This document shows positions 805 through 23,714 of a DNA stretch of 23,714 bases, one piece after another. This DNA is from a bacterium (lineage in GTDB: Bacteria > Bacteroidota > Ignavibacteria > UBA10030). The notes beneath the pieces were generated by a model. It saw only the letters and a program-made list of their open reading frames with translations, had not been told where the DNA came from and did not search any database. The DNA lies in the NCBI GenBank assembly GCA_043803945.1, contig JAZDJN010000081.1, positions 1-23,714 of the forward strand. Reading direction: 5' to 3'. Position 1 is the stretch's first letter. Every line of letters starts with the position of its first letter. The position numbers and the translations under genes are program-made.

Positions 805-2856
805 TTATTTTTTAGATAGAGTATCGAATGAAGTCGGCTTTTTCTCTATTTCCTCAAAAAGAAGATGAAAGAGGAATCGAAAACCGTGTACCGATTCGAA
901 CAGCCACACTTCGACCCACTTCAGCGGATTCCAGAGATGGCGATACCACCGCTTCCAGATACGTTGAATGTAGAATCTCGTGAAAGCACCGGCAAACGGA
1001 TTTCGTTTCTTGAACCAAAGATGCACCAACGAAGGCACTTTCAACTCCGGCATGTCAAGAGAAAGCTTTTCATAGAATGTAGCAAGTTCTTTCGTACTCA
1101 GATCCCGCCAATCAATGATATCCTGTTTCGTTTTTGAGATGAGATCATGAAGCGCCTCTTCGATGTTGCTCTTTGGCCGGCTTCGAAGCCATACTTCTTC
1201 GAGCTGGAAAAATAAACTTACCATATCCCATAATCGAATCGTGAGAACTTTCGTCCGATGCAACCAGAACGGGACAAATGCCTCCTGCGGGAGGTTAGCA
1301 CGGCGGTCAGTTCGGCGTCGTACGGTCCAGAAGCCGCAATTCATCGGATGCAAGCGTTCGATTCTGAATGAATAAAGGTACCACATGAAAAAAGATAACC
1401 GCTCTTTGTAAGAATAACGATCGCCTCTCCAAAGCTTCAGAACATCGACCATATGCTCGGTGGAATAGAATTGTTCCCATGCATTATGATACGCTTCCAT
1501 AAGCTCATCACAAGACATACGTTCCGGTTTTACTGCGACGTGGGCTGAATCATAGCTGTTGAAATCTTTGTCCAGCCAACGACCCTCGCGACACCACCGC
1601 TGGTGATCCTTTGAACCGGGAAGAGGTGCGAGAATGTAGAATGAAGCAGAATCGAACATCATCCGCTGAAGTTCTGAGATATCATGTTTGAGACTTTCCG
1701 GTGTATCGAACGGCAGTCCCAGGATATACCCCGCATGGCAAGCGATACCGAGCGAGTGGCAATGCTCAACAAGATTCTTGTACTCAGAGACCTGATTCTG
1801 AAACTTGTCCTGAGAACGGAGGTTCTCTCGGTTTACACTTTCCACACCGAAAAACACTTGATTGCAGCCTGCACGTGCAGCGAGTTCAAAGAAATCATTG
1901 CCGGGCATCTTCCGGGCTGCGAGATCGCTCTGCATCATAAAAGTGAACGGGATATTTTCTTCTTCGCGCATGCGGATGAGTTCGGAAAAAAGCTCTCGCC
2001 AGAGCGGGTTTCGTGCAGTGTTGTCGTCCGTGAAGAAAGAGTGCGAAACACCTGCCTCGCGATAACTCTGCCTCACAAATTCGACAACTTGTTTTGGATC
2101 CCGGTACCGCATAGTCCGGCCTTGTACGTTGATAATCGTACAAAAGTCGCAATTAAAGACACAGCCGCGCCCCGTATCAATAGTGGTAAATCGAGATGCG
2201 AAATTCTCGAATTCGTCTTTCGTGATATGAGGGATTGGAACGTCATGCAGCTTTGGTGTCGGATTAAGGAAATTATAGAGTGGCTGTGCCCTATCCCTGA
2301 GAACATCTTCTACGATCGCAGGTAATCGTCCTCCTTCAACCTCTCCGGCGACAAGCGTGATTCCTTTCGATATTGCACTCTTAAGATCTTCGGTAAGACC
2401 GATCATAGCCAGCATACCGCTTACATGGAAACCGCCGATTAATACAGAGATTCCATGCGGCAGAAACTTCGATGCAATATCCAGCGCACGGGGGTACTGG
2501 TTCGTTTGAACGCCAACGAGCATCACAATTGACTTCACTCCGGATACCTTTGAATGATGAACGATATCCTTCACAGGGATCCATTCAATTGCTTCATCAA
2601 TCTTTCGGATGTTGAGTGAGACTCCTCTGAAGAAAGGGAAGGTCATACAATCCTGTACGAGTGTACCAATCTGTGTCAGGGTGTTACTGCGGATAACGCC
2701 GATTCGTGTTTTGATCGGGTAACCGTCATCCGTATAGTTGGTGGGGCGAATGAGTGTTACGTCAAGTTCGCGTATTCCATACTCCGTAGCCGTTTGGAAA
2801 TCAGCGTGAGTATCCTCCAATCGCTTTAGCTCATCTACAGCAATGAGTCCTCGCAT
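805..2856 (-). CDS. Radical SAM protein with N-terminal B12-binding-like domain (class B-like)
   Basis: 683 aa ORF. CxxxCxxC motif (GRGCVFNCDFC), IGGFH and GEVE motifs of the B12-binding-like region, FTDDN, FFGVES, YILGLPFDT and PLPGS motifs typical of this family. Confidence 0.9.
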   Translation of the reverse strand: MRGLIAVDELKRLEDTHADFQTATEYGIRELDVTLIRPTNYTDDGYPIKTRIGVIRSNTLTQIGTLVQDCMTFPFFRGVSLNIRKIDEAIEWIPVKDIVHHSKVSGVKSIVMLVGVQTNQYPRALDIASKFLPHGISVLIGGFHVSGMLAMIGLTEDLKSAISKGITLVAGEVEGGRLPAIVEDVLRDRAQPLYNFLNPTPKLHDVPIPHITKDEFENFASRFTTIDTGRGCVFNCDFCTIINVQGRTMRYRDPKQVVEFVRQSYREAGVSHSFFTDDNTARNPLWRELFSELIRMREEENIPFTFMMQSDLAARKMPGNDFFELAARAGCNQVFFGVESVNRENLRSQDKFQNQVSEYKNLVEHCHSLGIACHAGYILGLPFDTPESLKHDISELQRMMFDSASFYILAPLPGSKDHQRWCREGRWLDKDFNSYDSAHVAVKPERMSCDELMEAYHNAWEQFYSTEHMVDVLKLWRGDRYSYKERLSFFMWYLYSFRIERLHPMNCGFWTVRRRTDRRANLPQEAFVPFWLHRTKVLTIRLWDMVSLFFQLEEVWLRSRPKSNIEEALHDLISKTKQDIIDWRDLSTKELATFYEKLSLDMPELKVPSLVHLWFKKRNPFAGAFTRFYIQRIWKRWYRHLWNPLKWVEVWLFESVHGFRFLFHLLFEEIEKKPTSFDTLSKK

Positions 2857-3125
2857 AGTTATTCCTTCTGAGAGTTCAGAATACTATTTCGTTTCCAACT
2901 TCTTCGGATAGTATTGCAGTATGCGGATTGAGTACAATGAATGAAACCATGATCTCTTTGCAGTCCTCATTCGCTTTCTCCTCCGTCATCCCGCCATAAC
3001 GATGTTGTCGGGCAGGACCGCCAGTGTGTCTCATCATCGTTGTCTGGTAGAGGCGAGACTGTATAGAAAGATTTCTGATGCAGGTGTAGATTGATCGACA
3101 AATACATTGATCTGCTCTCTGCAAA

Positions 3126-5423: not shown

Positions 5424-6174
5424 CGACTAGAGATCTAATTATTTCTATGAAACTGTTTAGGCATCATGTTTCGCTGTTAGCGTATTCAGTTCCTGCAGTG
5501 ACGACATAGACTTAAAGAAATCATTCTTCATTCCGCCTACGAATAGTACCCGCACAGGTAAAGATAAATAATGAGTTGAGTAAACACAACGGAGAGGCGG
5601 ATCTTTTATGGTTAAAAGCTCTCGATGAATTTCACTCGACTTTGAAGGAACTGCAAGGTGAACGAGGGTGGTTACAACTTTATAAGCTGCATAAAAAATT
5701 TTGTACATACCAATTAAATCAAGAACGAGGATTCGAGAAAGCAGCTATTCTACTTAGTTCTCACAGAAAAAGGATAGCCGCCAAAGCATAAAGTTACTAA
5801 GAGGTTCATATAATAGATAATTCAAAAAACTCAACATCCTTTCTGCCTTACCTGCACGCCTAAAGCGGTCTCAGATAGCAGGCGGGGAGTCTTTGTGGTA
5901 ATTATTTCATCGAGAACTACTTAGAAGTTGCACTATCCTTCCGGCCCGATCTGGAAGGAGGTTTCGGAGATGCTACCCCCGCTACATATTTGATGTCTGC
6001 GTTAAAGAGCGACTCTGCTTGAATTATTATTCTTCCCAATATTGACCATGTTCTGTCATCGGGGATTGAGCCATTATTGAAAAAATGGTGAACAGGAAAA
6101 ATCTTCATTCGCGATTTTAGAAGTGTGGAGCCACTATTCAGATGAGAAAATAAATCTTCCCGGTAAAATAAATC

Positions 6175-6219
6175 TTGACATCTACCTTCTTTTTTTTTAT
6201 CGTCGGTATGATGTCATAC
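6175..6219 (+). promoter_or_regulatory. Sigma70-type promoter of the TonB receptor operon with adjacent palindromic operator
   Basis: TTGACA (6175-6180), 17-bp spacer, TATCGT (6198-6203). Palindrome GTATGA-TG-TCATAC (6206-6219) lies over the predicted +1 region. Confidence 0.65.
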
Positions 6220-6431
6220 ATCTTATAAGGATTGATAACGATTTTTACTCCCGTTGGCGAACGAACCTTGCTAGGCAAATCCGTTGAAGGAAAAATCGAA
6301 GAAGCGATTGTAAAATAATTATCGATCCAATCCGTCGCTTAATGCCCAAGATAAAAACCGGTATTTATGCGGCGGCGGAGTGGCACACGAGAATTGCGAA
6401 GGCAATCATTTAACAAAAAGGAGGATTTTCC

Positions 6432-9203
6432 ATGAGGAAAGCAATTTTGCTCTCCTTTCTTCTTGCGTTCTCACTTTATGCTCAGAATAAGGGAAAGATC
6501 GCCGGCTATGTACGAGATGCAAAGACCAAAGAGGGGCTCCCCGGTGTGAATGTGGTACTGAAAGATACGCGTCTCGGAGCCATAACAGATATCGAAGGCG
6601 CATACTTCGTAATAAATATTCCACCCGGAATCTATGAAGTCACTGCCTCTATTATTGGATATCAAAAAGTTACCCAGGAGAATGTGCAGATCAGCAGCGA
6701 CCGGACAACGACGGTGAATTTCTCACTTCAGGAAGCGGCTCTTAATATTGTCAAAGAGGTTGTGGTGGTCGCGGAGCGGCCTGATGTCTCTCCCGAAAAA
6801 ACATCCACGAGCGATATTATTCGCGGCGAGCAAGCTTTGAGTTTACCCGGTACTCGCGATCTGACTGCGGTGATGTCACTCTCTCCTGACATCATCGATG
6901 GCCATTTCCGTGGCGGTCGTGAGGGAGAAGAACTCTATACGCTTGCTGGGATGGGAGTCGTCAACCCGCTCGATAATGCACTTGCAGTGGCACCAATTCT
7001 GAGTGCAGTGGAAGAGATTGAGGTGATCACCAGCGGCTTCAGTGCGAAATATGGAAACGCACAGTCTGGTGTTGTTAATATCTCGCTGAAGGAAGGCAGT
7101 AGAAACAAATGGCAGAGCCGCGCTGAGTTCCGATCGCGTATGCCGGCCTATAAACACTGGGGGGCGAATGTCTGGGATTCAAAAAATAATCCTTACCTCC
7201 AGTTGATGAATTCACCGGAAAAGATGAGATCGAACGAGGATAGCACAAGGCTCTTTCTTGCGAATTTCTTATCTCTTTCAAACTACAAAAACGATACAAC
7301 ACTTGCTTCACGTCTTGCTTATGCCATGTATACGCAGAATCGGCGAAATATCGGCGGGAGCTATAACAATACGTGGGATTATTCTGCGGAGGCAAATGTT
7401 GGCGGACCGCTTTCAAACGATGTCACTCTGTTTCTTGCAGGCCGTTTTGCAAATACCTGGCCTGTCATACCACCTCCGGAACCAGATGTCACCAGACAAT
7501 TGATAGCTAATCTCGCATTTTCCCTTGGCGATGGAATGTCGCTCCGGCTGAGCGGCGCTTTCTCAAATAACGACCGGCATGACTATCGGGCACTGGGATC
7601 GGCAACCAGCCTCGATTATCGCTATTGGATCTGGGACCGGGTGATGGGACTCAATAAGATCTCACAGGACAATTATACGTATGGTCTACGCTATACCTAT
7701 TCACCAACTCCAAACACATTCTATGAAGCCAAAGTCAGCGGACTGATGACAAGGGTACAGGAAGGTTCACCGGTTATTGCTACGGACAGGTTCAGAACGG
7801 ATGATGTTCTCGGCAATGCATTATGGCGTGTGCTCACAGGAGGTGATGGCTACCGGATTGGCTATATGGATTCAGGGACCCGCGACGAGAAGACCTTCAC
7901 CTTCTCAGTCGATGCCTCAATGACAAGCCAGGTAACGCGCTCACATCTGCTATTGGCAGGTATGCAATTTAATTCCTTCAATATCGATGTCAACAATCAG
8001 ACAGGCCGTGCGAATCCGGGTACGGCACACAACGAAATTTACATTGCCAAACCGATTGAGTGGTCTCTCTTCGTACAGGATAAAATGGAATTCCAGGGAA
8101 TGATTGCCAACATCGGACTCCGACTAGATGCCTACAATCAAAAAGTGGGGTATTATAAAAATGTATTCACACCACTTGAGGGTGCAGAGACCGAAAAGAC
8201 TCCAACGATCGGTCGTTTGCAGCCACGGATTGGAATTTCGTTCCCGGTTTCGACGATGACCGTGTTTCATATGAATTACGGATCCTTCCTGCAGCGTCCA
8301 TCGTTCCAATATACCATTGCGAAAAGTGTAAGCTTGACAGGCCGTATCCCTTCGTTAATCGGTAACCCTCAGTTGAAACCTCAGGATACCAAGAGTTATG
8401 ATGTTGGCCTGACACAAGGTTTTGGTAAGGGATTCACGCTCGACATCAGCAGTTATTATAAAGATGTCAGCAATCTGATTGAGCGTGTGTACTTCTATCC
8501 GGCCAAGGGTGCGTTGGAATTCTATGAAACATATATGAACCGTGATTATGCCGATATCAGAGGTTTTCGCATTTCCTTCAATCGACGATCCGGCATTCTC
8601 ACCGGCTCACTGAATTATAATTTCCAGGTTGCAACAGGCAAGAGCAGTACTCCCTTTGATGCTTCACCGATCATTCGTGAGAACACGAGCGCTTCCAGGA
8701 AAACCGATACCCCGGATCCTGAAGATATTCTTCTGGATTTTGATCGAACGCATAATGTGGTGCTGGTGCTTGGCGTCGAGACTCCTGTTGAGTTTGGTCC
8801 GCAAGTCTTTGGCGCTTTTCCGTTTGAACAGTTGAGCGTCTCCTCGAAATCGTTTATCCGAAGTGGCCGTCCCTATACTTCGGACCTCGATTTTGGAGAA
8901 CGCTTCAAGCGCAGAACTCCCTCGGAACAAAACACCGACTTAAAGATTTCGAAGCAGATCAAACACTTTTTCGGTGTCTCGGCAACGTTCTATGCTGAAG
9001 TATTTAACCTGTTTAATAGCAAGATCTATGAATACAATCCCGTTTTTAGAAATCCAATTAATCGAAATAAATTTGAATCTGACCAGGGTCAACTTCCCCT
9101 GTGGGTGAGTGAAGAAAACCAAATCTATACATGGGACATTTCCTATCTCCTTTACGACAATGCTCCACGGTCCATCTGGTTTGGTTTGGTAATAAACTTC
9201 TGA
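6432..9203 (+). CDS. TonB-dependent outer membrane receptor
   Basis: 923 aa. Signal peptide, carboxypeptidase-regulatory-like N-domain (GKIAGYVRDAKT.E.LPGVNV), plug motif (EEIEVITSGFSAKYGNAQSGVVNI), GNPQLKP, EVFNLFN and a C-terminal Phe. SD AGGAGG. Confidence 0.95.
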   Translation: MRKAILLSFLLAFSLYAQNKGKIAGYVRDAKTKEGLPGVNVVLKDTRLGAITDIEGAYFVINIPPGIYEVTASIIGYQKVTQENVQISSDRTTTVNFSLQEAALNIVKEVVVVAERPDVSPEKTSTSDIIRGEQALSLPGTRDLTAVMSLSPDIIDGHFRGGREGEELYTLAGMGVVNPLDNALAVAPILSAVEEIEVITSGFSAKYGNAQSGVVNISLKEGSRNKWQSRAEFRSRMPAYKHWGANVWDSKNNPYLQLMNSPEKMRSNEDSTRLFLANFLSLSNYKNDTTLASRLAYAMYTQNRRNIGGSYNNTWDYSAEANVGGPLSNDVTLFLAGRFANTWPVIPPPEPDVTRQLIANLAFSLGDGMSLRLSGAFSNNDRHDYRALGSATSLDYRYWIWDRVMGLNKISQDNYTYGLRYTYSPTPNTFYEAKVSGLMTRVQEGSPVIATDRFRTDDVLGNALWRVLTGGDGYRIGYMDSGTRDEKTFTFSVDASMTSQVTRSHLLLAGMQFNSFNIDVNNQTGRANPGTAHNEIYIAKPIEWSLFVQDKMEFQGMIANIGLRLDAYNQKVGYYKNVFTPLEGAETEKTPTIGRLQPRIGISFPVSTMTVFHMNYGSFLQRPSFQYTIAKSVSLTGRIPSLIGNPQLKPQDTKSYDVGLTQGFGKGFTLDISSYYKDVSNLIERVYFYPAKGALEFYETYMNRDYADIRGFRISFNRRSGILTGSLNYNFQVATGKSSTPFDASPIIRENTSASRKTDTPDPEDILLDFDRTHNVVLVLGVETPVEFGPQVFGAFPFEQLSVSSKSFIRSGRPYTSDLDFGERFKRRTPSEQNTDLKISKQIKHFFGVSATFYAEVFNLFNSKIYEYNPVFRNPINRNKFESDQGQLPLWVSEENQIYTWDISYLLYDNAPRSIWFGLVINF

Positions 9204-15671: not shown

Positions 15672-15793
15672 GTTTGAAAATTCGGGATAATGCTACAATC
15701 TTATACAAAATACATTGGAGCGGATTTTTTACGATCGATGAACATGGTCTACCAATGAGACCGTTCACCATACTTTAGGGCAGCGCTGTGAGG

Positions 15794-15921
15794 CTGACTC
15801 ATCCCCCTCGCCTACGCTGCCGCTTCCACCTCCGTTCTTCGAACTTCGGTGGACAAGTCGGCGAGCAGGCACACCCCCTTCTCTAAAACTTAGAGAAGGG
15901 GGATTGAGGGGGTTGAGTCAG
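15794..15921. repeat. Nested palindromic (REP/REPIN-like) element
   Basis: Outer IR CTGACTCATCCCCCTC (15794-15809) / GAGGGGGTTGAGTCAG (15906-15921), 15/16 match. Perfect 13-bp stem 15874-15886/15890-15902. Inserted hairpins CTCGCC..GGCGAG+CAGGC and TCCACC..GGTGGA+CAAGT. Confidence 0.8.
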
Positions 15922-15965
15922 AAGAATAAGAAACTAATCTCGACGCCGTCTAAAAAGAAAATGAA

Positions 15966-15994
15966 TTGACTCTTCCTGCAAACATTTCTACATT
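15966..15994 (+). promoter_or_regulatory. Putative Pc-like promoter upstream of the cassette array
   Basis: TTGACT (15966-15971), 17 bp, TACATT (15989-15994), pointing into the array about 190 bp upstream of the first recombination point. Confidence 0.45.
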
Positions 15995-16268
15995 TCTTCC
16001 AGCCATATCTTATATACCGTGTTGAAGCATACCGGAGGGAAGGATTTGTGTGCTTCCGAAGGAGCAACTCCTGCATACGAAAAAGATAATTCCAAGGAAT
16101 CGAAAAGCTTAGGATTCGCGATTGCGATGAAGGAGGTTTTCATACTTATAAGGAATAATCGCAATTCGTTTTTACACACTGTTATGCGCCATTTGCGCTT
16201 TCGATTCAGTTCACGCTCAGAAACTTTATACGAAGTATGCTCCGCAACAACCAACTTTGGAGGAATGT

Positions 16269-16646
16269 ATGGCTAAGAAGAAAGTATTCATCAGCTTCGA
16301 CTTCGACAACGACAAGACATTGAAGGAATTTATTATCGGGCAGGCCAAAAACGATGACTCGCCGTTTGAAGTCAGCGATCATTCGATCAAAGAAGCCGCT
16401 CCCGAAAAGGATTGGCTTGACCGAGCCAAGGTTGCAATTGGACGAGCTGACGTGTTCATAATTATGCTCGGCTCGAAAACTAAGAATGCCAGCGGGGTAC
16501 TCAAAGAACTCAAGGTTGCCAATGAAAAAGGTAAGGATAAGTTCCAGATCATCGGATACCGCGACGGCTCTGAAGATTGGGCTGTCCCCGGTGGAGGACG
16601 TGTATATCGATGGAATTGGTATAACCTGAAGAAACTACTCTCGTGA
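16269..16646 (+). CDS. TIR-like domain protein (MTH538/DUF1863, ThsB-like)
   Basis: Start ATG 16269 after GGAGG. Motifs KKVFISFDFDND, D.SIKE, I..ADVFIIMLG..T..A.GVLKE (Glu at the TIR catalytic position), Y.WNW.NL. Confidence 0.8.
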   Translation: MAKKKVFISFDFDNDKTLKEFIIGQAKNDDSPFEVSDHSIKEAAPEKDWLDRAKVAIGRADVFIIMLGSKTKNASGVLKELKVANEKGKDKFQIIGYRDGSEDWAVPGGGRVYRWNWYNLKKLLS

Positions 16647-16650
16647 GGGT

Positions 16651-17091
16651 ATGATGTCTAAGGTCAAGATAGATTCTCCGGGTGTTCAGAGTTATCTGGA
16701 GATTCTCCAAGGCGTGATCAATCGAATGGCATCCAACAGCTCGGGTTGTAAGACGTGGTGCATAGCTTTGGTCTCTGCCATTGTCGTCATCATAGCGGAT
16801 AAGGGGAAGCCGCAATTTGTGTGGATTTCGCTTTTCCCCGTTCTTCTTTTCTTGTTTCTTGATGCTTACTACCTGAGTCTAGAAATACGATTCCGTGACC
16901 GGTACAACGACTTCATCAGAAAGTTACACGCAGACGAAGCATCAATTGAAGATTTGTTCATTGTTACACCGGGCAAAGGATTTAGAAATATCACCAAGTC
17001 GAGCATCAAGGCGCTATTCTCGCTATCTGTCTGGCCATTCTATGGTCTGCTGATTGCCATGATGATTATTATGCGTCTCTGGCTCCTATGA
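16651..17091 (+). CDS. Small 3-TM membrane protein, putative defence effector
   Basis: YLEILQGVINRMASNS...KTW motif, three hydrophobic segments, LDAYYL.LE..FR..Y. Starts 4 nt after the TIR stop codon. Confidence 0.75.
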   Translation: MMSKVKIDSPGVQSYLEILQGVINRMASNSSGCKTWCIALVSAIVVIIADKGKPQFVWISLFPVLLFLFLDAYYLSLEIRFRDRYNDFIRKLHADEASIEDLFIVTPGKGFRNITKSSIKALFSLSVWPFYGLLIAMMIIMRLWLL

Positions 17092-17195
17092 GTAAAGCTG
17101 ACGAAACTTGACATACATTTGCTCTCCGGCTTGCGATGTTGTAAATTAAGGTCAGTTCAGAATTGATCTCAGACTCTTACAATCATTGGAGTAGT

Positions 17196-18098
17196 ATGAA
17201 GGTATTTGAAAAGAACGGTCACAAGATAATTTGGGGTGAAGCGATTGAGGTTTTTGAAACCATCAAAGATGGTTCGGTCGACCTCATTTTCGCTGATCCC
17301 CCTTACAACATCGGGAAAAAATTTGCCGACGTTCCTGATCGCTGGGAATCGGATAGTTCGTATTTGAATTGGTGTTATAAGTGGCTGCACATGTGTATCA
17401 AGAAGCTGAGAAGTAATGGGACGATGTACGTAATGACGGCCACCCAGAACATGCCACACTTCGACCTTTTCCTGAGAGATAAACTTACAATCCTCTCTCG
17501 AATTGTCTGGTATTACGACAGTTCCAGTGTTCAGGCACGCAAGTATTTTGGTTCTCTATATGAGCCGATACTTCATTGCGTCAGGGACGAGAATGATTAC
17601 ACATTCAATTCGAAGGACATTCTGGTAGAGGCGAAGACTGGCGCTGTTCGTAAGCTGATTGACTATAGAAAACCCGTCCCGACAGTTTATAACTCGAAGA
17701 AGGTTCCCGGAAACGTCTGGCATCTTCCAAGGGTAAGATACCGTATGGATGAATACGAAAACCATCCAACGCAGAAGCCAATTGCATTGCTGGAAAGGAT
17801 TATCAAGGCAAGCAGCAACGAGGGCGATTTAGTAGTTGATCCGTTCTCTGGCTCTTTCACAACTTCGTACGTTGCCAAGCAACTCAAAAGAAAGTCAATT
17901 GGAATCGAGATCAGCGAGGACTACGTCAAGATTGGTTTGCGCCGTTTACAGATCGCTACAAAGTTTAACGGTGAACCTCTACGTAGAGAGCGAAAGACAT
18001 ATGAGCCACCGGAAAACGAAAACCAAACCGCCCTATCCCTATTTGAAAAGAAAGTCAAATGGAACACGAGTTCACCAAAACGATCAAAAGTATCTTAG
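17196..18098 (+). CDS. Beta-class N6-adenine DNA methyltransferase (YhdJ/M.AvaIII/M.NsiI-like)
   Basis: Motif IV DPPYN precedes HPTQKP and motif I DPFSGSFTT (beta order). AKTGAVRKLIDYRK and RVRYRMDEYENHPTQKP are YhdJ-like. Likely start ATG 17196 after GGAG. Confidence 0.9.
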   Translation: MKVFEKNGHKIIWGEAIEVFETIKDGSVDLIFADPPYNIGKKFADVPDRWESDSSYLNWCYKWLHMCIKKLRSNGTMYVMTATQNMPHFDLFLRDKLTILSRIVWYYDSSSVQARKYFGSLYEPILHCVRDENDYTFNSKDILVEAKTGAVRKLIDYRKPVPTVYNSKKVPGNVWHLPRVRYRMDEYENHPTQKPIALLERIIKASSNEGDLVVDPFSGSFTTSYVAKQLKRKSIGIEISEDYVKIGLRRLQIATKFNGEPLRRERKTYEPPENENQTALSLFEKKVKWNTSSPKRSKVS

Positions 18099-19204
18099 AG
18101 AAGAACTTTCCAAAGTCATCGCAGACGATCTTTTCAAAGAGCGAGCTTATTCAGTATCTCAATATCAAGAGCAAGTCGGCAAACAAAGGTTCAAAGTCCA
18201 GGGGCAGTTTCGCCAATCTCTATGCCATCTATGTTTTGGTCGAAGATTACATTTCAAAAGGCTTCCACAAGGCAGGCAATTACAAGAAGTCCGAGGGTGC
18301 CGTCTTTTCAACGCTTTTCGACAGACAAAGGGAGCTACCTTTTGGGCAGAAACTGCAGAACCACGCACTTAACCACCGAATGAATGAGGAGTTCAAGAAG
18401 TTTTTCCCTAATTGCGATTACATTCCCATCCTTCGAGATCCTAAAACCAACCGCTACTGGTTCAACCAAAATCTTCTCAGACTCACAGTCCGCTCCAAGA
18501 AGCAAGACCTTTCTCAGTCTATGATAGAAATTATCGACGCATACGTCGAGGCAAAGAGAAGCGCATTTGACCGATTTATCAAGTTCTGTGAGGGTGCAGA
18601 AAAACTCAAAGAGCCGAAGCTTGTAGAATTCATCACGGGTTTGATTGAGCCCACAGTTGACGCCCGCATTTTTGAGATCGTAAGCTACAGTATTCTCAAG
18701 TACTACTATCACAATCAGAAACTCTTCTGGGGTTTTGACCCTGATGACCTCCAAGAAGATAATCTCAAACTCTACAAAACTGGGCGCACCAATGCCAATG
18801 ATGGCGGCATTGATTTCGTTATGAAGCCATTAGGGCGATTTTTTCAGGTCACTGAGACTGTCGATGTGAAGAAGTACTTCTTAGACATCGACAAGATTGA
18901 GAAATTCCCGATAACCTTTGTTGTCAAATCAACCGATTCGTCTGATACTATCAGACAGAAGATACAACAACAGGCAGAAAGACAATATTCAATCCAAGCT
19001 ATTGTCTCTCGATATATGTCTTGCATTGAAGAAATTATCAACATTCCCGAATTGCTTCTCAAGTTCAAATCGGTGATTGATGAAGGTTACTTGACCGACA
19101 TTCTTACAGAGATCATCAAACAGAGCAAGGTCGAATTCAATTACGACGAAGATGACTACGATGTGAGCGAATATGCGAACGGCAAAGAGTCCGAAGAAGA
19201 TTGA
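18059..19204 (+). CDS. Type II restriction endonuclease (AvaIII/NsiI-like)
   Basis: Overlaps the MTase by 40 nt. QYLNIK.KSANKGSKSRGSFAN.YAIYVLVEDY and the nuclease-like core NANDGGIDFVMKPLGRFFQVTE resemble, from recall, REases paired with YhdJ-like MTases. Confidence 0.78.
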   Translation: MEHEFTKTIKSILEKNFPKSSQTIFSKSELIQYLNIKSKSANKGSKSRGSFANLYAIYVLVEDYISKGFHKAGNYKKSEGAVFSTLFDRQRELPFGQKLQNHALNHRMNEEFKKFFPNCDYIPILRDPKTNRYWFNQNLLRLTVRSKKQDLSQSMIEIIDAYVEAKRSAFDRFIKFCEGAEKLKEPKLVEFITGLIEPTVDARIFEIVSYSILKYYYHNQKLFWGFDPDDLQEDNLKLYKTGRTNANDGGIDFVMKPLGRFFQVTETVDVKKYFLDIDKIEKFPITFVVKSTDSSDTIRQKIQQQAERQYSIQAIVSRYMSCIEEIINIPELLLKFKSVIDEGYLTDILTEIIKQSKVEFNYDEDDYDVSEYANGKESEED

Positions 19205-19218
19205 CAGGCGCAAACGGC

Positions 19219-19349
19219 ACATAACACGCCGCACCACGTCGCTCCGTCATTTGGAGTAGATTAAAGTCGTCGCTCAATGGCACGCCTTCGCAGGAAATTG
19301 ATTTATTATAGCTCGGCGTGCCACTGCGTGGTGCGGCGAAATGTTAGGC
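19219..19349 (+). other. attC-like recombination site 1 (131 bp)
   Basis: R'' ACATAAC 19219-19225. Perfect 12-bp IR CGCCGCACCACG (19227-19238)/CGTGGTGCGGCG (19327-19338). Inner IR TGGCACGCC/GGCGTGCCA. R' GTTAGGC 19343-19349. Confidence 0.82.
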
Positions 19350-19387
19350 GGCATGGCCGCCCTAAGGATACAGATAACGGGATGTGT

Positions 19388-19666
19388 TTATTCAAAGAGT
19401 TGTACTCTAATCCTCATGCCTAGTGCATTTGCATATTTTTCAAGAGTTGAGAGTCGTATGTCCTCAGCATGGTTTTCAATTCGGGATATTGCCGATTTTT
19501 TTGTCCGAAGTTTCTTCGCAATCGCTTCTTGTGTTACTCCAGCTCGTTCTCGAGCTTCCCTCAACATCACACTGAACTCAAACGCTTCATATCCTGATTC
19601 GAAATTCTGTGCAAACTTTGAACTACGTGCTTTTCGTCTTTCGATATATCGCTCAACATCACTCAT
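19388..19666 (-). CDS. HigA-like XRE/HTH antitoxin
   Basis: [31 protein letters not shown]...[21 protein letters not shown]-coupled to the upstream toxin. Confidence 0.9.
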
Positions 19667-20016
19667 AGCTTTCCCTTCCTTTGCATGTATTCAGTTCGTC
19701 GTTGTTGCGCTAGCTCTATCTCTTGTAAAGGTATTTTCTTTTGCTTCTTCACAAATCCGCTCGTCAAGATTAGTAACACCGGTCCATCAAAGAATCCAAG
19801 TAATCGATAATGTTTACCTCCAGACTGAACGCGTATTTCCCAGAGTTGATCGGTTCCGACAAGTTTTTTCAAGTATTGCTCTGGTACTCTATCAAGTCGC
19901 TCAACAAGTCGTAGTACCCATGCTACTTTCTGAGCGTGCTGGTCCGACAAGCTGTCGAGGGATTCTTCTACTGGCTTCGAGTTCGATGGTGTTCTATAAA
20001 ATTCTATTTCTCGCAC
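19663..20016 (-). CDS. RelE/ParE-superfamily toxin (Gp49-like, HigB-type)
   Basis: IEFYRT....PVEE.L..L, LWEIRV......YR, GFVKK..K.P..EIELA..R motifs. Toxin-before-antitoxin gene order. Confidence 0.9.
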
Positions 20017-20021
20017 ATCCT

Positions 20022-20050
20022 AAGTTAACATATATGTGAACTATATGCAA
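20022..20050 (-). promoter_or_regulatory. TA promoter with palindromic autoregulatory operator
   Basis: Minus strand TTGCAT (20050-20045), 17 bp, TAACTT (20027-20022). Near-perfect palindrome GTTAACATA-TATGTGAAC (20024-20041) overlaps the spacer and -10. Confidence 0.7.
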
Positions 20051-20091: not shown

Positions 20092-20378
20092 GCCTAACAA
20101 TCGTGCTTGCGACCCGCCTCCGAAAAAAACACTACGGCGGGCAGGCGCTCGCCTAGGAAGATAGCGGGCGGGCACTCGTTTGGTTATGTCGAATAGGAAT
20201 CTAAATTAATGTATGTCAATTGTGCTTCCGCCAAAAAGATAGCGGACAGTTGCTCCATTTCGTGCCGCCACACAATTGAGCTTTCATAGCGGCGGCACTC
20301 AACGGCCCCGATAAAAAACATCCCGATACAATGCATCGGGACAAGTTCGGGGCAGGCGCAAGCACTCACACGTTATGC
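20092..20378 (+). other. attC-like site 2 (287 bp, expanded by nested hairpins)
   Basis: R'' GCCTAAC 20092-20098, IR GTGCTTGCG (20103-20111)/CGCAAGCAC (20357-20365), R' GTTATGC 20372-20378. Confidence 0.75.
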
Positions 20379-20430
20379 GCCACGCAGCTTTTGTAGGAAA
20401 CGATATGCTTGGTACTTTGGAATAAGGAAT

Positions 20431-20847
20431 ATGTCAACACACCAATCATTTTCCTTCGTACAATTTTTGATTTTACTCTTATTTCTCTCAAGCGGGTGCG
20501 TTTCGATAGAAATTATCAATCCTGATCCAGGTAGATTCGATTCGACAAAAGACATTGTAGTATCAACCCATGATGGCCGTAACATTCTCTTTCGTGGTGG
20601 CAATTATCAGATCATCTATCAACTCAATAATAAATTAATCAAAGGTTATGGGAGATTGATAGCTGCGGGAAATCTATCTGACCGAGAATTAATATTTAAT
20701 GATACTATTCCGTTTGACCAAATCGATTCAATTCAGGTACGCCATTATTCGATATTTCACTATACCGGTGCAATTATATTTGGGATAGCAGCACTTTGTG
20801 TTATCATACTAGCAATGATGTTCGGCGGCCGTGGTATTGGCGATTGA
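20431..20847 (+). CDS. Putative lipoprotein with C-terminal TM segment (cassette gene, copy 1)
   Basis: SD AAGGA, lipobox-like LSSG|C, hydrophobic C-terminal helix, AT-rich. Confidence 0.75.
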   Translation: MSTHQSFSFVQFLILLLFLSSGCVSIEIINPDPGRFDSTKDIVVSTHDGRNILFRGGNYQIIYQLNNKLIKGYGRLIAAGNLSDRELIFNDTIPFDQIDSIQVRHYSIFHYTGAIIFGIAALCVIILAMMFGGRGIGD

Positions 20848-20889
20848 TTATATTAATCATTATCAATGCAAATCATGCTGCTGCGCGGC

Positions 20890-21203
20890 GCCAAACAATC
20901 GTGCTTGCGACCCGCCTACGCCAAAATCGCTTCCACCTTCACTTCGTTTCAGTGGACAAGTCGGCGGACAAACCCGCCCAAGAAGATGGCGGACAAACGC
21001 TCGTTTGGTTATGTCGAACAGGAATCTAATGAAAGGTATGTCAGTTGTGCTTCCGCCAAACAGACGGCGGACAGGCGCTCCATTTCGTGCCGCCACACAA
21101 ATTGATTTTTCGTAGTGGCGGCACTCAACGGCCCCGATAAATAACATCCCGATACAATGCATCGGGACAAGTTCGGGGCAAGCGCAAGCACTCACTGCTA
21201 GGC
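20890..21203 (+). other. attC-like site 3 (314 bp, degenerate cores)
   Basis: Homologous to site 2, with the same GTGCTTGCG/CGCAAGCAC arms. R'' GCCAAAC and R' GCTAGGC deviate from consensus. Confidence 0.65.
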
Positions 21204-21255
21204 GGCACGCAGCTTTTGTAGGAAACGATATGCTTGGTACTTTGGAATAAGGAAT

Positions 21256-21672
21256 ATGTTAACACACCAATCATTTTCCTTCGTACAATTTTTGCTTTTA
21301 CTCTTATTTCTCTCAAGCGGGTGCGTTTCGATAGAAATTATCAATCCTGATCCAGGTAGATTCGATTCGACAAAAGACATTGTAGTATCAACCCATGATG
21401 GTCGTAACATTCTCTTTCGTGGTGGTAATTATCAGATCATCTATCAACTCAATAATAAATTAATCAAAGGTTATGGGAGATTGATAGCTGCGGGAAATCT
21501 ATCTGACCGAGAATTAATATTTAATGATACTATTCCGTTTGACCAAATCGATTCAATTCATGTACGCCATTATTCGATATTTCACTATACCGGTGCAATT
21601 ATATTTGGGATAGCAGCACTTTGTGTTATCATACTAGCAATGATGTTCGGCGGCCGTGGTATTGGCGGTTGA
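21256..21672 (+). CDS. Putative lipoprotein with C-terminal TM segment (cassette gene, copy 2)
   Basis: 134/138 aa identical to 20431-20847. Confidence 0.75.
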   Translation: MLTHQSFSFVQFLLLLLFLSSGCVSIEIINPDPGRFDSTKDIVVSTHDGRNILFRGGNYQIIYQLNNKLIKGYGRLIAAGNLSDRELIFNDTIPFDQIDSIHVRHYSIFHYTGAIIFGIAALCVIILAMMFGGRGIGG

Positions 21673-21866
21673 TTATATTAATCATTATCAATGCAAATCA
21701 TGCTGCTGCGCAGCGCCTAACAATCGCAACTATGGTGTTCGCTCTTTAATGTGTTAGCTGCAAGTTTCCCCTGGACTTTCTCATCATATTCCTCTCACAT
21801 ACAGTGCCACACAAGATTACAAAATATTGTGTAGATTAGCGTAATTAGCGTTAACCCGATGAATCG

Positions 21867-22538
21867 ATGAAAACAGAATTGATAGAGAAGCAAGTTGTCT
21901 CAAAAAAGCGTGTGGCTGACCATGGCGAGGTGTTGACCGGCAAGCGCGAGGTTAATGCCATGCTCGACCTTGTGAAGCAGGAAACGGAGCGGATCGAGTC
22001 GCGGTTTCTTGAACCGGCTTGCGGGGACGGGAATTTCCTCACAGAAATTCTGGAACGAAAACTGCGCGTCGTTGAAAGCCGCTACGGGAAGTCCCAACTG
22101 GAATACGAACGCTACGCCATACTTGCAGTATCTTCCATCTACGGCATTGATATTCTGGAAGACAACGTTCAGCAGTGCCGGCACAGGCTTTTCGGGGTTT
22201 TCGAGTTGAACTACACGCGGCTTTTCAAGAACAATGCCAAGAATAGGTGTCGCGAGGCCGTCCGGTTCATCCTTGAACGCAATATCATCTGGGGCGACGC
22301 CCTGACGCTCAAGACAGTGGGCGAGGAACCGGAATACATTGTTTTTTCAGAATGGTCGCCGGTCAATGGAAGTATGCTTAAGCGGCGCGACTTCACGTTC
22401 CACGGTTTGCTGTCACACGAAGGCATGAAGGAACTGCCGCTCTTCTCCGATCTCGGCGAAGACGTATTCATTCCCACACCGAAGAAGGAATATCGCCCGA
22501 CCCACTTCCTGGAGGTTGCCGATGCAGACAAGCGGTAG
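21867..22538 (+). CDS. SAM-dependent DNA methyltransferase-like subunit (motif I, no obvious motif IV)
   Basis: [42 protein letters not shown]. Overlaps the downstream Eco57I-like gene. Confidence 0.8.
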
Positions 22539-23714
22539 TTACAACCCGGACGTCCTGACCTGCCTGGCAAACTTGAGCAGTGACGAAGTGTTCAGCCCGC
22601 CGCAATTGGTCAATCGCGTTCTGGATTTACTGCCTCATGAAATTTGGAGCGACAAGAACGCCCGGTTTCTCGATCCGTTCTGCAAGTCCGGTGTTTTTTT
22701 ACGCGAGATTGCCAAGCGCCTCGACAAAGGCCTGGAAAAGATAATCCCGAACAAGCAGAAGCGGATCAACCACATCTTTAAGAACCAGTTGTTCGGCATT
22801 GCCATTACGGAATTGACCTCTTTGCTTTCCCGCCGGTCGGTGTATTGCTCGAAGACCGCCAATGGGAAATATTCCGTCTGCGAAACCTTCGACGACTTAC
22901 AGGGTAATATCCGTTTCAAGCGGATCGAGCACACATGGGAAGAAGGACGTTGCGTTTTCTGCGGGGCAAACCAAGAGGCCTATGACCGAAGCAAAGAACT
23001 GGAAACCCACGCCTATCAATTTATCCATACTGAAAAGCCAGAGGAGATATTCAAGATGAAATTCGATGTCATTGTCGGCAATCCGCCGTACCAACTGAGC
23101 GATGGGGGAGCGAAGGCAAGTGCTTCACCTATTTATCACTTATTTGTTCAGCAAGCGAAAAAGCTTAATCCTCGGTTTCTGACCATGATTATTCCTTCAC
23201 GCTGGTTCTCCGGCGGGAAAGGGCTGGATAACTTCAGAAATGAGATGCTTAATGACAATCGTTTGCGACAAATTATCGATTATCCTGATTCGACCGAGTG
23301 TTTTCCTGGCGTTGACCTGAGCGGCGGAGTCTGTTACTTCAAATGGGACAGAGACAACCGGGGCGATTGTGAGATCAATACACATATCGAAGGAAGAACA
23401 TCGACGATGACTCGCCCTCTACACGAAAAGGACATAGACACGTTTATCCGATACAACGAAGCAGTCTCTATCCTTCACAAGATAATCACAAAAAAGGAAA
23501 ATGAAAGTAGCTTCAGTGAAATAGTTAGCGCGAGAAAGCCTTTCGGATTTTCGACTGACTTTAATGATTTCAAACAGAAAGAATTTCCTCACAGTGTAAA
23601 GTTAATTGGTTACAATAAAACCGGCTTTGTTAAGCAATCTCAAATACTACAAAACAGTTCCTGGGTAAATAAACACAAAGTCTATATTTCTATGGCCTAC
23701 GGGGAGAGAATAGC
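22522..23714 (+). CDS. Eco57I-like restriction-modification methylase domain protein (partial, runs off the window)
   Basis: Absent from the ORF track because it has no stop in the window. Manual translation from ATG 22522 (SD GGAGG): [27 protein letters not shown]...[12 protein letters not shown]...[13 protein letters not shown]...[14 protein letters not shown]. Confidence 0.88.

Follow-up and report, generated by a model that had tools for sequence, protein, structure and literature searches.

A four-gene cassette in an Ignavibacteria genome as a probable fusion of two mobile defence cassettes

The subject of this analysis is a four-gene unit in 23,714 nt of DNA from a bacterium of the Ignavibacteria (GTDB lineage Bacteria; Bacteroidota; Ignavibacteria; UBA10030). 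This stretch, referred to here as the window, is the whole of contig C81 (JAZDJN010000081.1) of a 5.54-Mb, 118-contig assembly (GCA_043803945.1). The unit (16181-19343) is a real integron-type cassette of 3.16 kb and encodes, in order, a short TIR-domain protein, a small membrane protein with three predicted transmembrane (TM) helices, a DNA methyltransferase (MTase) and a type II restriction endonuclease (REase). We consider it probable that the unit is not one system but the fusion of two separately mobile defence cassettes, one carrying the TIR/TM pair and the other the restriction–modification (RM) pair, that were joined by loss of the attC site between them. The two halves most likely act as independent defence layers that now travel together.

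Cassette boundaries and the central spacer

The ends of the unit are marked by inverted repeats. The left sequence GTTATGCGCCATTTGCGC (16181-16198) and the right sequence GCGCAAACGGCACATAAC (19208-19225) are reverse complements at 16 of 18 positions, so that both the coordinates and the score given in an earlier note on this DNA hold; when the flanking zones (16150-16268 and 19205-19350) were shuffled, none of 300 shuffles reached 16 and the best 18-mer complementarity was 14. The GTTATGC at 16181 is a 6/7 match to the core GTTRRRY. Comparison of the first 18 nt of each cassette with its own last 18 nt gives 16 matches for the unit and 13-14 for two lipoprotein cassettes further along the array; unrelated start–end combinations within the window reach only 3-11 of 18.

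Each repeat can also be found at the end of a smaller cassette elsewhere. A cassette that holds only the TIR/TM pair (locus L010) begins with GTTATGTGCAATTTGCAC and carries the left 18-mer at 15 of 18 positions, and a cassette that holds only the RM pair (L091) terminates in the same sequence as the right repeat of the window. The inverted repeats are thus not supported as the signature of one original cassette: judged by these sequences, the left repeat would come from a TIR/TM cassette and the right repeat from an RM cassette. The left end of one parent pairs with the right end of the other because both parents belong to one attC family.

We called attC sites with a simple detector of the R''/L''/L'/R' boxes and with a covariance model of the local attC family (E <= 10). 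The attC at the right end of the unit (Table 1) is the sole forward-strand detector match in the whole window, and its bottom strand folds at -33 kcal/mol (z -3.48). It is homologous to the attCs of L010, L091 and two further loci described below (L089 and L090), and the shared structure has compensatory changes at 12 of 30 consensus pairs (four sequences).

The only gap in the unit with room for a hidden site is the spacer between the TM and MTase genes (17092-17195), the TIR–TM gap being 4 nt and the MTase and REase genes overlapping. No fold was found in this region (17085-17200, z +1.03; 171 of 200 shuffles fold as well), and the spacer has neither a covariance match to the local family at E <= 10 nor a detector match. 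The statement in the earlier note that no attC lies between the four genes is therefore upheld. We reject a hidden recombination site at this place, which that note had named as a finding that would speak against its interpretation; the spacer instead has the features of a scar left by a lost site. Its larger part, 17116-17184, aligns to the leader of the RM-only cassette L091 from CATTTGC, 9 nt inside the left end of that cassette (1 of 1000 shuffles scores as well), and the GTT core of the RM cassette and the preceding attC are missing. In the pair-only cassette L010, GCGCAAACTGCACATAAC lies 14 nt past the TM stop codon and is followed by the attC; the R''-like segment of the spacer (17104-17115) has the same position after the TM stop. 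A clearer version, GGGCAAAC..., is retained in L089 and in a derivative, L092. The same junction, together with a homologous pre-junction segment of 24-25 nt, is found in five scar-bearing loci (the window, L089, L090, L092 and L009), which favours one fusion event. Fused integron cassettes are known to arise by loss of the attC of the first cassette, according to PMC4670013.

The course of events that we propose is as follows. Two cassettes of one attC family, one with genes for a ThsB-type TIR and a three-TM protein and the other with genes for a YhdJ-family methylase and a type II endonuclease, would once have been adjacent. Deletion of the intervening attC, from inside its R'' box to just past the R' core, would have left the 104-nt spacer without a crossover site, and the four fused genes, flanked by the left end of the pair cassette and the attC of the RM cassette, would then have moved between arrays as one piece. 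In the cell, the RM half would cut unmethylated incoming DNA, probably at ATGCAT, and the TIR half may sense infection and make an NAD-derived signal that causes the three-TM protein to oligomerise and damage the membrane, in a Thoeris-like form of abortive infection. Linkage would give co-transfer of two defence layers, and an addictive RM pair may also stabilise the cassette.

Relatives of the unit and competing explanations

The same four genes occur in the same order in two other arrays. In L009, from a public Nitrospiraceae metagenome-assembled genome (MAG), nucleotide identity to the window is 83% over 16259-19226. The left end of L009 (GTTATGTGCCATTTGCAC) has the GTTATG boundary of the window; homology begins at the left core (16181), and the sequences upstream of it are unrelated. 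On the right, homology stops at 19226, where L009 has the same repeat followed by a different, shorter attC (66 nt) and a different next cassette. A changed stop codon adds 24 residues to the TM protein of L009. In L089, a metagenome locus, the four proteins are 92-95% identical to those of the window at the amino-acid level; its left boundary is not checkable because the contig begins inside the left terminal repeat. The right-hand neighbours of the unit differ among the window, L009 and L089. A further copy may lie on a Logan contig of 12,463 bp, for which identities of 92% (TM protein) and 93% (REase) are recorded.

The 66-nt attC of L009 (3155-3227 of that locus) shares its R'' box with the 131-nt site found in the window, L089, L090 and L091, but has an unrelated central part; the attC body of L009 was swapped, with the break at R''. 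We rejected the idea that the attC is not carried with the cassette, suggested by the end of L009 homology at 19226, as L089, L090 and L091 show that the attC of the window belongs to the native family of the RM cassette.

Between the window and L009, dN/dS is 0.03-0.05 and dS is 0.94-1.25 for all four genes. The genes have therefore diverged together under purifying selection.

To the two halves as separate entities we can add their distribution in two surveys of homologous loci. Among 80 genome loci with a TM homolog, 64 of which continue for 2200 nt or more past the TM gene, a REase homolog is present in one (L009). Among 56 metagenome loci with a REase homolog (27 with at least 1000 nt upstream of the MTase gene and 12 more with 250-999 nt), the TIR/TM pair is present in one (L089). 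Even RM pairs that are 90-94% identical to that of the window (L090, L091) occur without the TIR/TM pair. On the other side, the detector places an attC directly after the TM gene in 5 of the 80 TM loci, as against 0 in shuffled segments. An upstream attC is followed at once by TTATATGCCATTTGCTCGC, the start of the RM-only cassette L091, which ends with GCAAACGGCATATAAC plus its own attC; the RM-only starts of L141, L142/L143 and L094/L095 are similar.

Two loci appear as derivatives that carry the scar. L092 keeps it with only the last ~8 codons of the TM gene, behind an unrelated cassette, and L090 is homologous to the window only from 17086 onwards. Both have an intact RM pair without TIR/TM, and the RM pair therefore does not need its neighbours. 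The L092 derivative (2500-3040 of that locus) starts at a GTTCATT in the last TM codons, directly after an attC-like GACTAAC..., and the truncation may have occurred by recombination at a secondary GTT site. The product of the cassette before it resembles a nucleotidyltransferase by eye.

Several observations weigh against a fusion of two independent cassettes, or against parts of that explanation. No canonical attC that ends at the left boundary (16181) was recognised: 16090-16200 folds weakly (z -1.40) and has no covariance match at E <= 10 and no detector match. The unit may therefore not be excisable here on its own boundaries. The earlier description of one excisable unit thus stands as regards a single cassette, with its own attC and recurrence in L009 and L089, and is doubtful as regards excision at this site. 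No integron integrase or recombinase was found among the open reading frames (ORFs) of the window, and the matches to TIGR02249 elsewhere in the genome (at the ends of contigs C41, C45 and C70, and on C5 and C65) are all below the 265-bit cut-off as single matches. The R''-like segment of the spacer agrees with the R'' of L010 at 10 of 12 positions, a score equalled by 114 of 1000 shuffles and not significant alone. In REase and MTase trees (15 selected rows each, quick search, SH-aLRT values only, no bootstrap), the RM-only cassettes L091, L141 and L142, which have intact left ends, nest between two fused groups, one of the window, L089 and L090 and the other of L009 and L092; L091 joins the window group with an SH-aLRT of 100 in the REase tree and 81-95 in the MTase tree. 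One clean ancestral fusion is therefore insufficient, and either later exchange of RM alleles or a second fusion at the same hairpin is needed. The genome does not avoid ATGCAT (observed/expected 0.92, rank 25 of 64 palindromes), so that the specificity of the RM pair is a matter of analogy. Finally, we infer the independence of the two halves from gene distribution, not from function.

A bolder form of the explanation is that the fusion is a selected two-layer immunity cassette, in which restriction and a minimal Thoeris-like abortive module are moved by one integrase event and held by the addictive RM pair, and which may have arisen repeatedly at a single hairpin junction. We regard this as speculative and fairly unlikely. 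If it were true, integrons could assemble miniature defence islands through attC loss, and few TIR signalling systems would be smaller than the 125-aa TIR with its 146-aa three-helix partner.

It is unlikely, too, that the halves owe their association to selected co-mobilisation, an explanation in which there is no biochemical coupling and the fusion is adaptive and perhaps recurrent, the RM-stabilised fused cassette out-competing single cassettes. The age of the fused form (dS about 1 between the window and L009), the purifying selection on all four genes and the presence of the unit in three arrays (that of the window's genome, the Nitrospiraceae MAG and a metagenome contig) are what would be seen in that case, and both trees, in which RM-only cassettes fall between the fused groups, could reflect two fusions at one junction. 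However, all five loci with the scar are homologous at the junction and over the 24-25 nt before it, which speaks for a single event with later exchange; fused copies are rare in both surveys, two derivatives have lost the TIR/TM half, and the trees that would argue for recurrence are the small, unbootstrapped ones described above.

The earlier note had proposed that the TIR/TM pair is a guard or back-up for the RM system. Guard-type pairings are exemplified by PrrC with EcoprrI and by PARIS, which senses the anti-restriction protein Ocr, and the unit is like them in that a predicted abortive module adjoins a restriction system. On this proposal the four genes would form one functional system that fires when a phage inhibits restriction, and their tight packing on one strand, the lack of a terminator-like site in the spacer and the persistence of the intact unit in three arrays with all four genes under purifying selection would agree with it. 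Yet in PrrC and PARIS either the linkage or the trigger is conserved across the family; of the loci related to the unit, by contrast, 79 of 80 and 55 of 56 lack the linkage, which is confined to one cassette lineage. That note had itself pointed to a lack of RM linkage in homologous loci as evidence against coupling, and such a lack is what the surveys found. Moreover, at least 5 loci hold the pair as a self-contained module that ends in an attC, PADLOC lists it as a two-gene candidate, the RM pair persists after loss of TIR/TM in L090 and L092, and the spacer reads as a deletion scar, not as a designed junction. We therefore find a composite system improbable; the alternative offered in the same note, that two defence layers were pre-packaged for mobility, is favoured by the scar and by the separate existence of the halves elsewhere.

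Least probable of all is that the block is a fossil, a decayed piece of an integrase-less attC cluster that neither moves nor functions and whose 18-mer complementarity is the consensus of the attC family: although the window lacks an integrase and an attC before 16181, nearby cassettes are duplicated or ORF-less, and the termini are common to pair-only and RM-only cassettes and so family-wide, the four ORFs are intact with 88-95% amino-acid identity to copies in other arrays, the 3' attC is intact, the hairpin at 15797-15918 could serve as left partner, and integron-integrase-like genes and further attC arrays lie on other contigs of the genome.

Table 1 Coordinates of the unit, its parts and the sequence to its left in the window
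Feature	Position	Strand	Remarks
attC-like hairpin upstream of the unit	15797-15918	+	ACTCATC ... GTTGAGT
ORF-less remnant	15919-16180	.	Between the upstream hairpin and the unit; without a recognisable attC of its own
Left terminal repeat	16181-16198	+	R' core GTTATGC plus outward extension; boundary between G and TT at 16181/16182
TIR gene	16269-16646	+	125 aa, short ThsB-type; ends 4 nt before the TM gene
TM gene	16651-17091	+	146 aa; three predicted TM helices; PADLOC PDC-M50A
Probable fusion scar	17092-17195 (104 nt)	+	R''-like remnant 17104-17115; RM leader 17116-17184
MTase gene	17196-18098	+	N6-adenine DNA methyltransferase, YhdJ family
REase gene	18059-19204	+	Type II restriction endonuclease; 40-nt overlap with the MTase gene (18059-18098)
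Right terminal repeat	19208-19225	+	R'' ACATAAC plus outward extension; probably from the RM cassette
attC of the unit	19219-19349 (131 nt)	+	ACATAAC ... GTTAGGC; crossover G 19343; TTAGGC onwards belongs to the next cassette

The two modules and their known relatives

The gene assignments of the earlier note were all borne out (by a ThsB_TIR match, three predicted TM helices, a YhdJ equivalog match and a type II REase match), and its suggested PADLOC check returned PDC-M50A for the TM protein, ThsB for the TIR, and the MTase_II and REase_II models for the RM pair. The TIR matches Pfam ThsB_TIR (PF08937) with 23.8 bits (cut-off 21.2) and PADLOC ThsB with E 7.3e-6. All 22 close homologs compared have its glutamate E80, part of the motif GVLKE, as do at least 90% of a set of 72 TIRs. 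The TM protein matches PDC-M50A model PDLC04686 with E 2.3e-31 and three more PDC-M50A models with E 1e-14 to 1e-20, and its AlphaFold2 model (pLDDT 84.5) is all-helical, with membrane-length helices at residues 10-51, 54-93 and 128-145.

The pairing of these two proteins is widespread. Searches returned 873 relatives of the TM protein, at 58-92% identity and from many phyla. Of the 80 surveyed loci, 71 have a same-strand ORF immediately before the TM homolog, and in 64 of these the ORF encodes a ThsB_TIR protein. PDC-M50 of PADLOC-DB v2.0.0 has the TM protein as component A and a TIR as component B. Partner TIRs match PDC-M50B in 43 of the 72 scanned (best E 1.2e-69), a set that includes the TIR of the window, itself below threshold with E 0.0094 (14.2 bits) and better matched by generic ThsB models. 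The 125-aa TIR belongs to a divergent short subgroup. By sequence, then, the pair matches the PADLOC candidate PDC-M50 and looks Thoeris-like; no mention of the name PDC-M50 was found in the literature searched.

The TM protein is the presumed effector of the TIR. It has no match in Pfam (E <= 10) or NCBIfam (E <= 1), DUF2270, SLATT and Macro included, no PDB match by Foldseek at E <= 0.001 and, in the ESM Atlas, only neighbours in unnamed clusters without a Pfam family. DUF2270 sequences were sought for a profile comparison and were found in 0 of 401 genomes. No ligand-binding domain is recognisable in the protein; a conserved segment after the second TM helix, LD.YYL.LE.RFR..YN.FI.KLH, is predicted to be cytosolic and is a candidate ligand site.

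Some related loci have additional genes. In L015, L019, L022, L025 and L029 a third gene follows within about 10-30 nt of the TM gene; its product, read by eye from the DNA, begins MAR(R/H)(V/A)FFSFHYQND... and resembles a second, different TIR-like protein, which suggests that some members of the family may be three-gene systems. L062 has TIR genes of two subfamilies: an 81% homolog of the short TIR of the window (6108-6464 of that locus) lies 537 nt upstream of the TM homolog, and a different TIR ORF (6495-6989) adjoins it.

A preprint on Thoeris diversity (bioRxiv 10.64898/2025.12.03.692087) describes type II as Macro+TM and reports validation of type V, with effector ThsF (DUF2270, three TM helices) and trigger 3'cADPR, and of type VII, with effector ThsH (SLATT) and cADPR, among 29 putative types that include various TM proteins. 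As far as these descriptions go, the pair resembles the membrane types in that an operon of two genes encodes a ThsB-type TIR, whose catalytic-type glutamate is conserved, and a small multi-pass membrane protein, and it shares with type V an effector of three TM helices, as predicted here. It differs in that the TM protein matches none of the described effector families by Pfam and in the unusual shortness of the TIR (125 aa). The pair may already be among the 29 putative types.

For the RM half, the MTase scores 450.1 bits against the NCBIfam equivalog for YhdJ (NF008572, cut-off 292), with E 8.7e-57 against Pfam N6_N4_Mtase and E 4.6e-129 against PADLOC MTase_II. The REase matches PADLOC REase_II model PDLC03455 (E 6.7e-159) and has no Pfam family and no match among solved structures. 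We take its family to be linked to NsiI/AvaIII. It has > 6346 relatives, and a homologous MTase gene lies directly upstream in 50 of the 56 surveyed REase loci. YhdJ of E. coli and Salmonella is an orphan methylase; the MTase of the window, by contrast, has an overlapping REase partner. Because YhdJ methylates ATGCA*T, as stated in PMC9239280, ATGCAT is by analogy probably the sequence that the RM pair recognises. In the whole genome, the lowest observed/expected ratio of the 64 six-base palindromes is that of CAGCTG (267 observed and 942 expected, ratio 0.28), a scarcity that suggests long exposure to a PvuII-type restriction system.

Every component of the unit is of a known kind. The novelty lies in the particular case, in which attC loss has joined two defence modules and the product has moved between the arrays of unrelated organisms. 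The class 1 integron cassettes in PMC4670013 provide the closest parallel, as there too the attC of the first cassette is partly or wholly lost and the product is bounded by the 5' end of the first cassette and the attC of the second. Those fusions join resistance genes, whereas the unit joins two multi-gene anti-phage modules; it also lies in a chromosomal integrase-less array, has spread to the arrays of other organisms and is old (dS about 1). Two preprints on integron defence cassettes (bioRxiv 10.1101/2024.07.02.601686 and 10.1101/2024.07.02.601719) report that compact systems and type II RM are common and that the cassettes are small, streamlined and mostly of one system; the first describes such cassettes as compact, and at 3.16 kb, with four genes and two systems, the unit is therefore large for its class.

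The fusion implies that integron arrays can build multi-system defence units, with the loss of one attC welding two mobile cassettes into a product that spreads between unrelated organisms. It reveals no new kind of coupled RM–abortive system, and where 'composite' defence is scored from adjacency in cassette arrays, fusion scars should be checked first. The PDC-M50 TIR and three-TM pair emerges as a frequent, widely distributed and very compact Thoeris-like candidate, of a size that suits cloning and identification of the signal.

The surrounding array and integrase-like genes

The cassette array spans at least 15797 to about 21760. It consists, in order, of the upstream hairpin (15797-15918), the four-gene unit, a toxin–antitoxin cassette and two lipoprotein cassettes, each behind an ORF-less element; the left 15 kb of the window holds ordinary chromosomal genes, including type IX secretion components. 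The bottom strand of the hairpin has a folding energy of -44.1 kcal/mol (z -9.77), which none of 200 shuffles equalled, and the centre of the hairpin is similar to the attC at 20890-21014 (repeat family D5). The hairpin marks the array start at or before that point and is the nearest upstream partner candidate for the unit, 263 nt away. A sigma-70-like match was seen at 15966-15994, but the region has no more of these than expected by chance, and in a promoter and terminator scan of 15700-19500 the counts did not exceed those of shuffles. No Rfam family reached its gathering score in the window. The public sequencing runs listed for this DNA comprised three DNA entries with small shares (0.06-0.07) and no RNA entry.

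Elsewhere in the genome, six attC-like sites lie downstream of the TIGR02249 match on C5, and attC sites of the window's family are also present on C90 and C114. With no integrase in the window and integrase-like genes and attCs on other contigs, the array can be classed as an attC cluster that lacks an integrase, in a genome with integrons. The ends of C45 and C70 carry identical N-terminal integrase-like pieces, and C41 (2317 bp) carries a C-terminal piece, with a TGA within one match; these pieces at contig ends suggest that the genome has two or more copies of the integrase and that the assembly broke at them. The recombinase frame on C5 that precedes the six sites is 358 aa long and has no match to model positions 180-241.

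The cassette that follows the unit (19343 to about 20189) holds a toxin–antitoxin pair at 19388-20016 on the minus strand, opposite to the array. Its 117-aa protein is Gp49/HigB-like (PF05973, E 9.6e-19) and its 92-aa protein has a helix-turn-helix domain (HTH_31/HTH_3). A 232-aa forward-strand ORF that overlaps the pair (19341-20039) matches no family and is probably spurious. Beyond it lies an 825-nt tandem duplication (20183-21203 and 21008-21760) with two 98% identical copies of a cassette for a 138-aa lipoprotein, which has weak pallilysin-like matches. Each copy stands behind an ORF-less element of ~190 nt that is mostly a long attC-like hairpin (z -4.9 and -6.0), and the second copy has the R' core GCTAGGC instead of GTT....

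At the right end of the window, two overlapping ORFs (21867-22538 and 22516-23712) that reach the contig end both match models of MmeI/Eco57I-type methylases. Either these are two genes or a frameshift has divided a single type IIG or Eco57I-like gene. Upstream of them, at 21715, GCCTAAC resembles the short start of an attC, and the region 21867-23712 may be a further large defence cassette.

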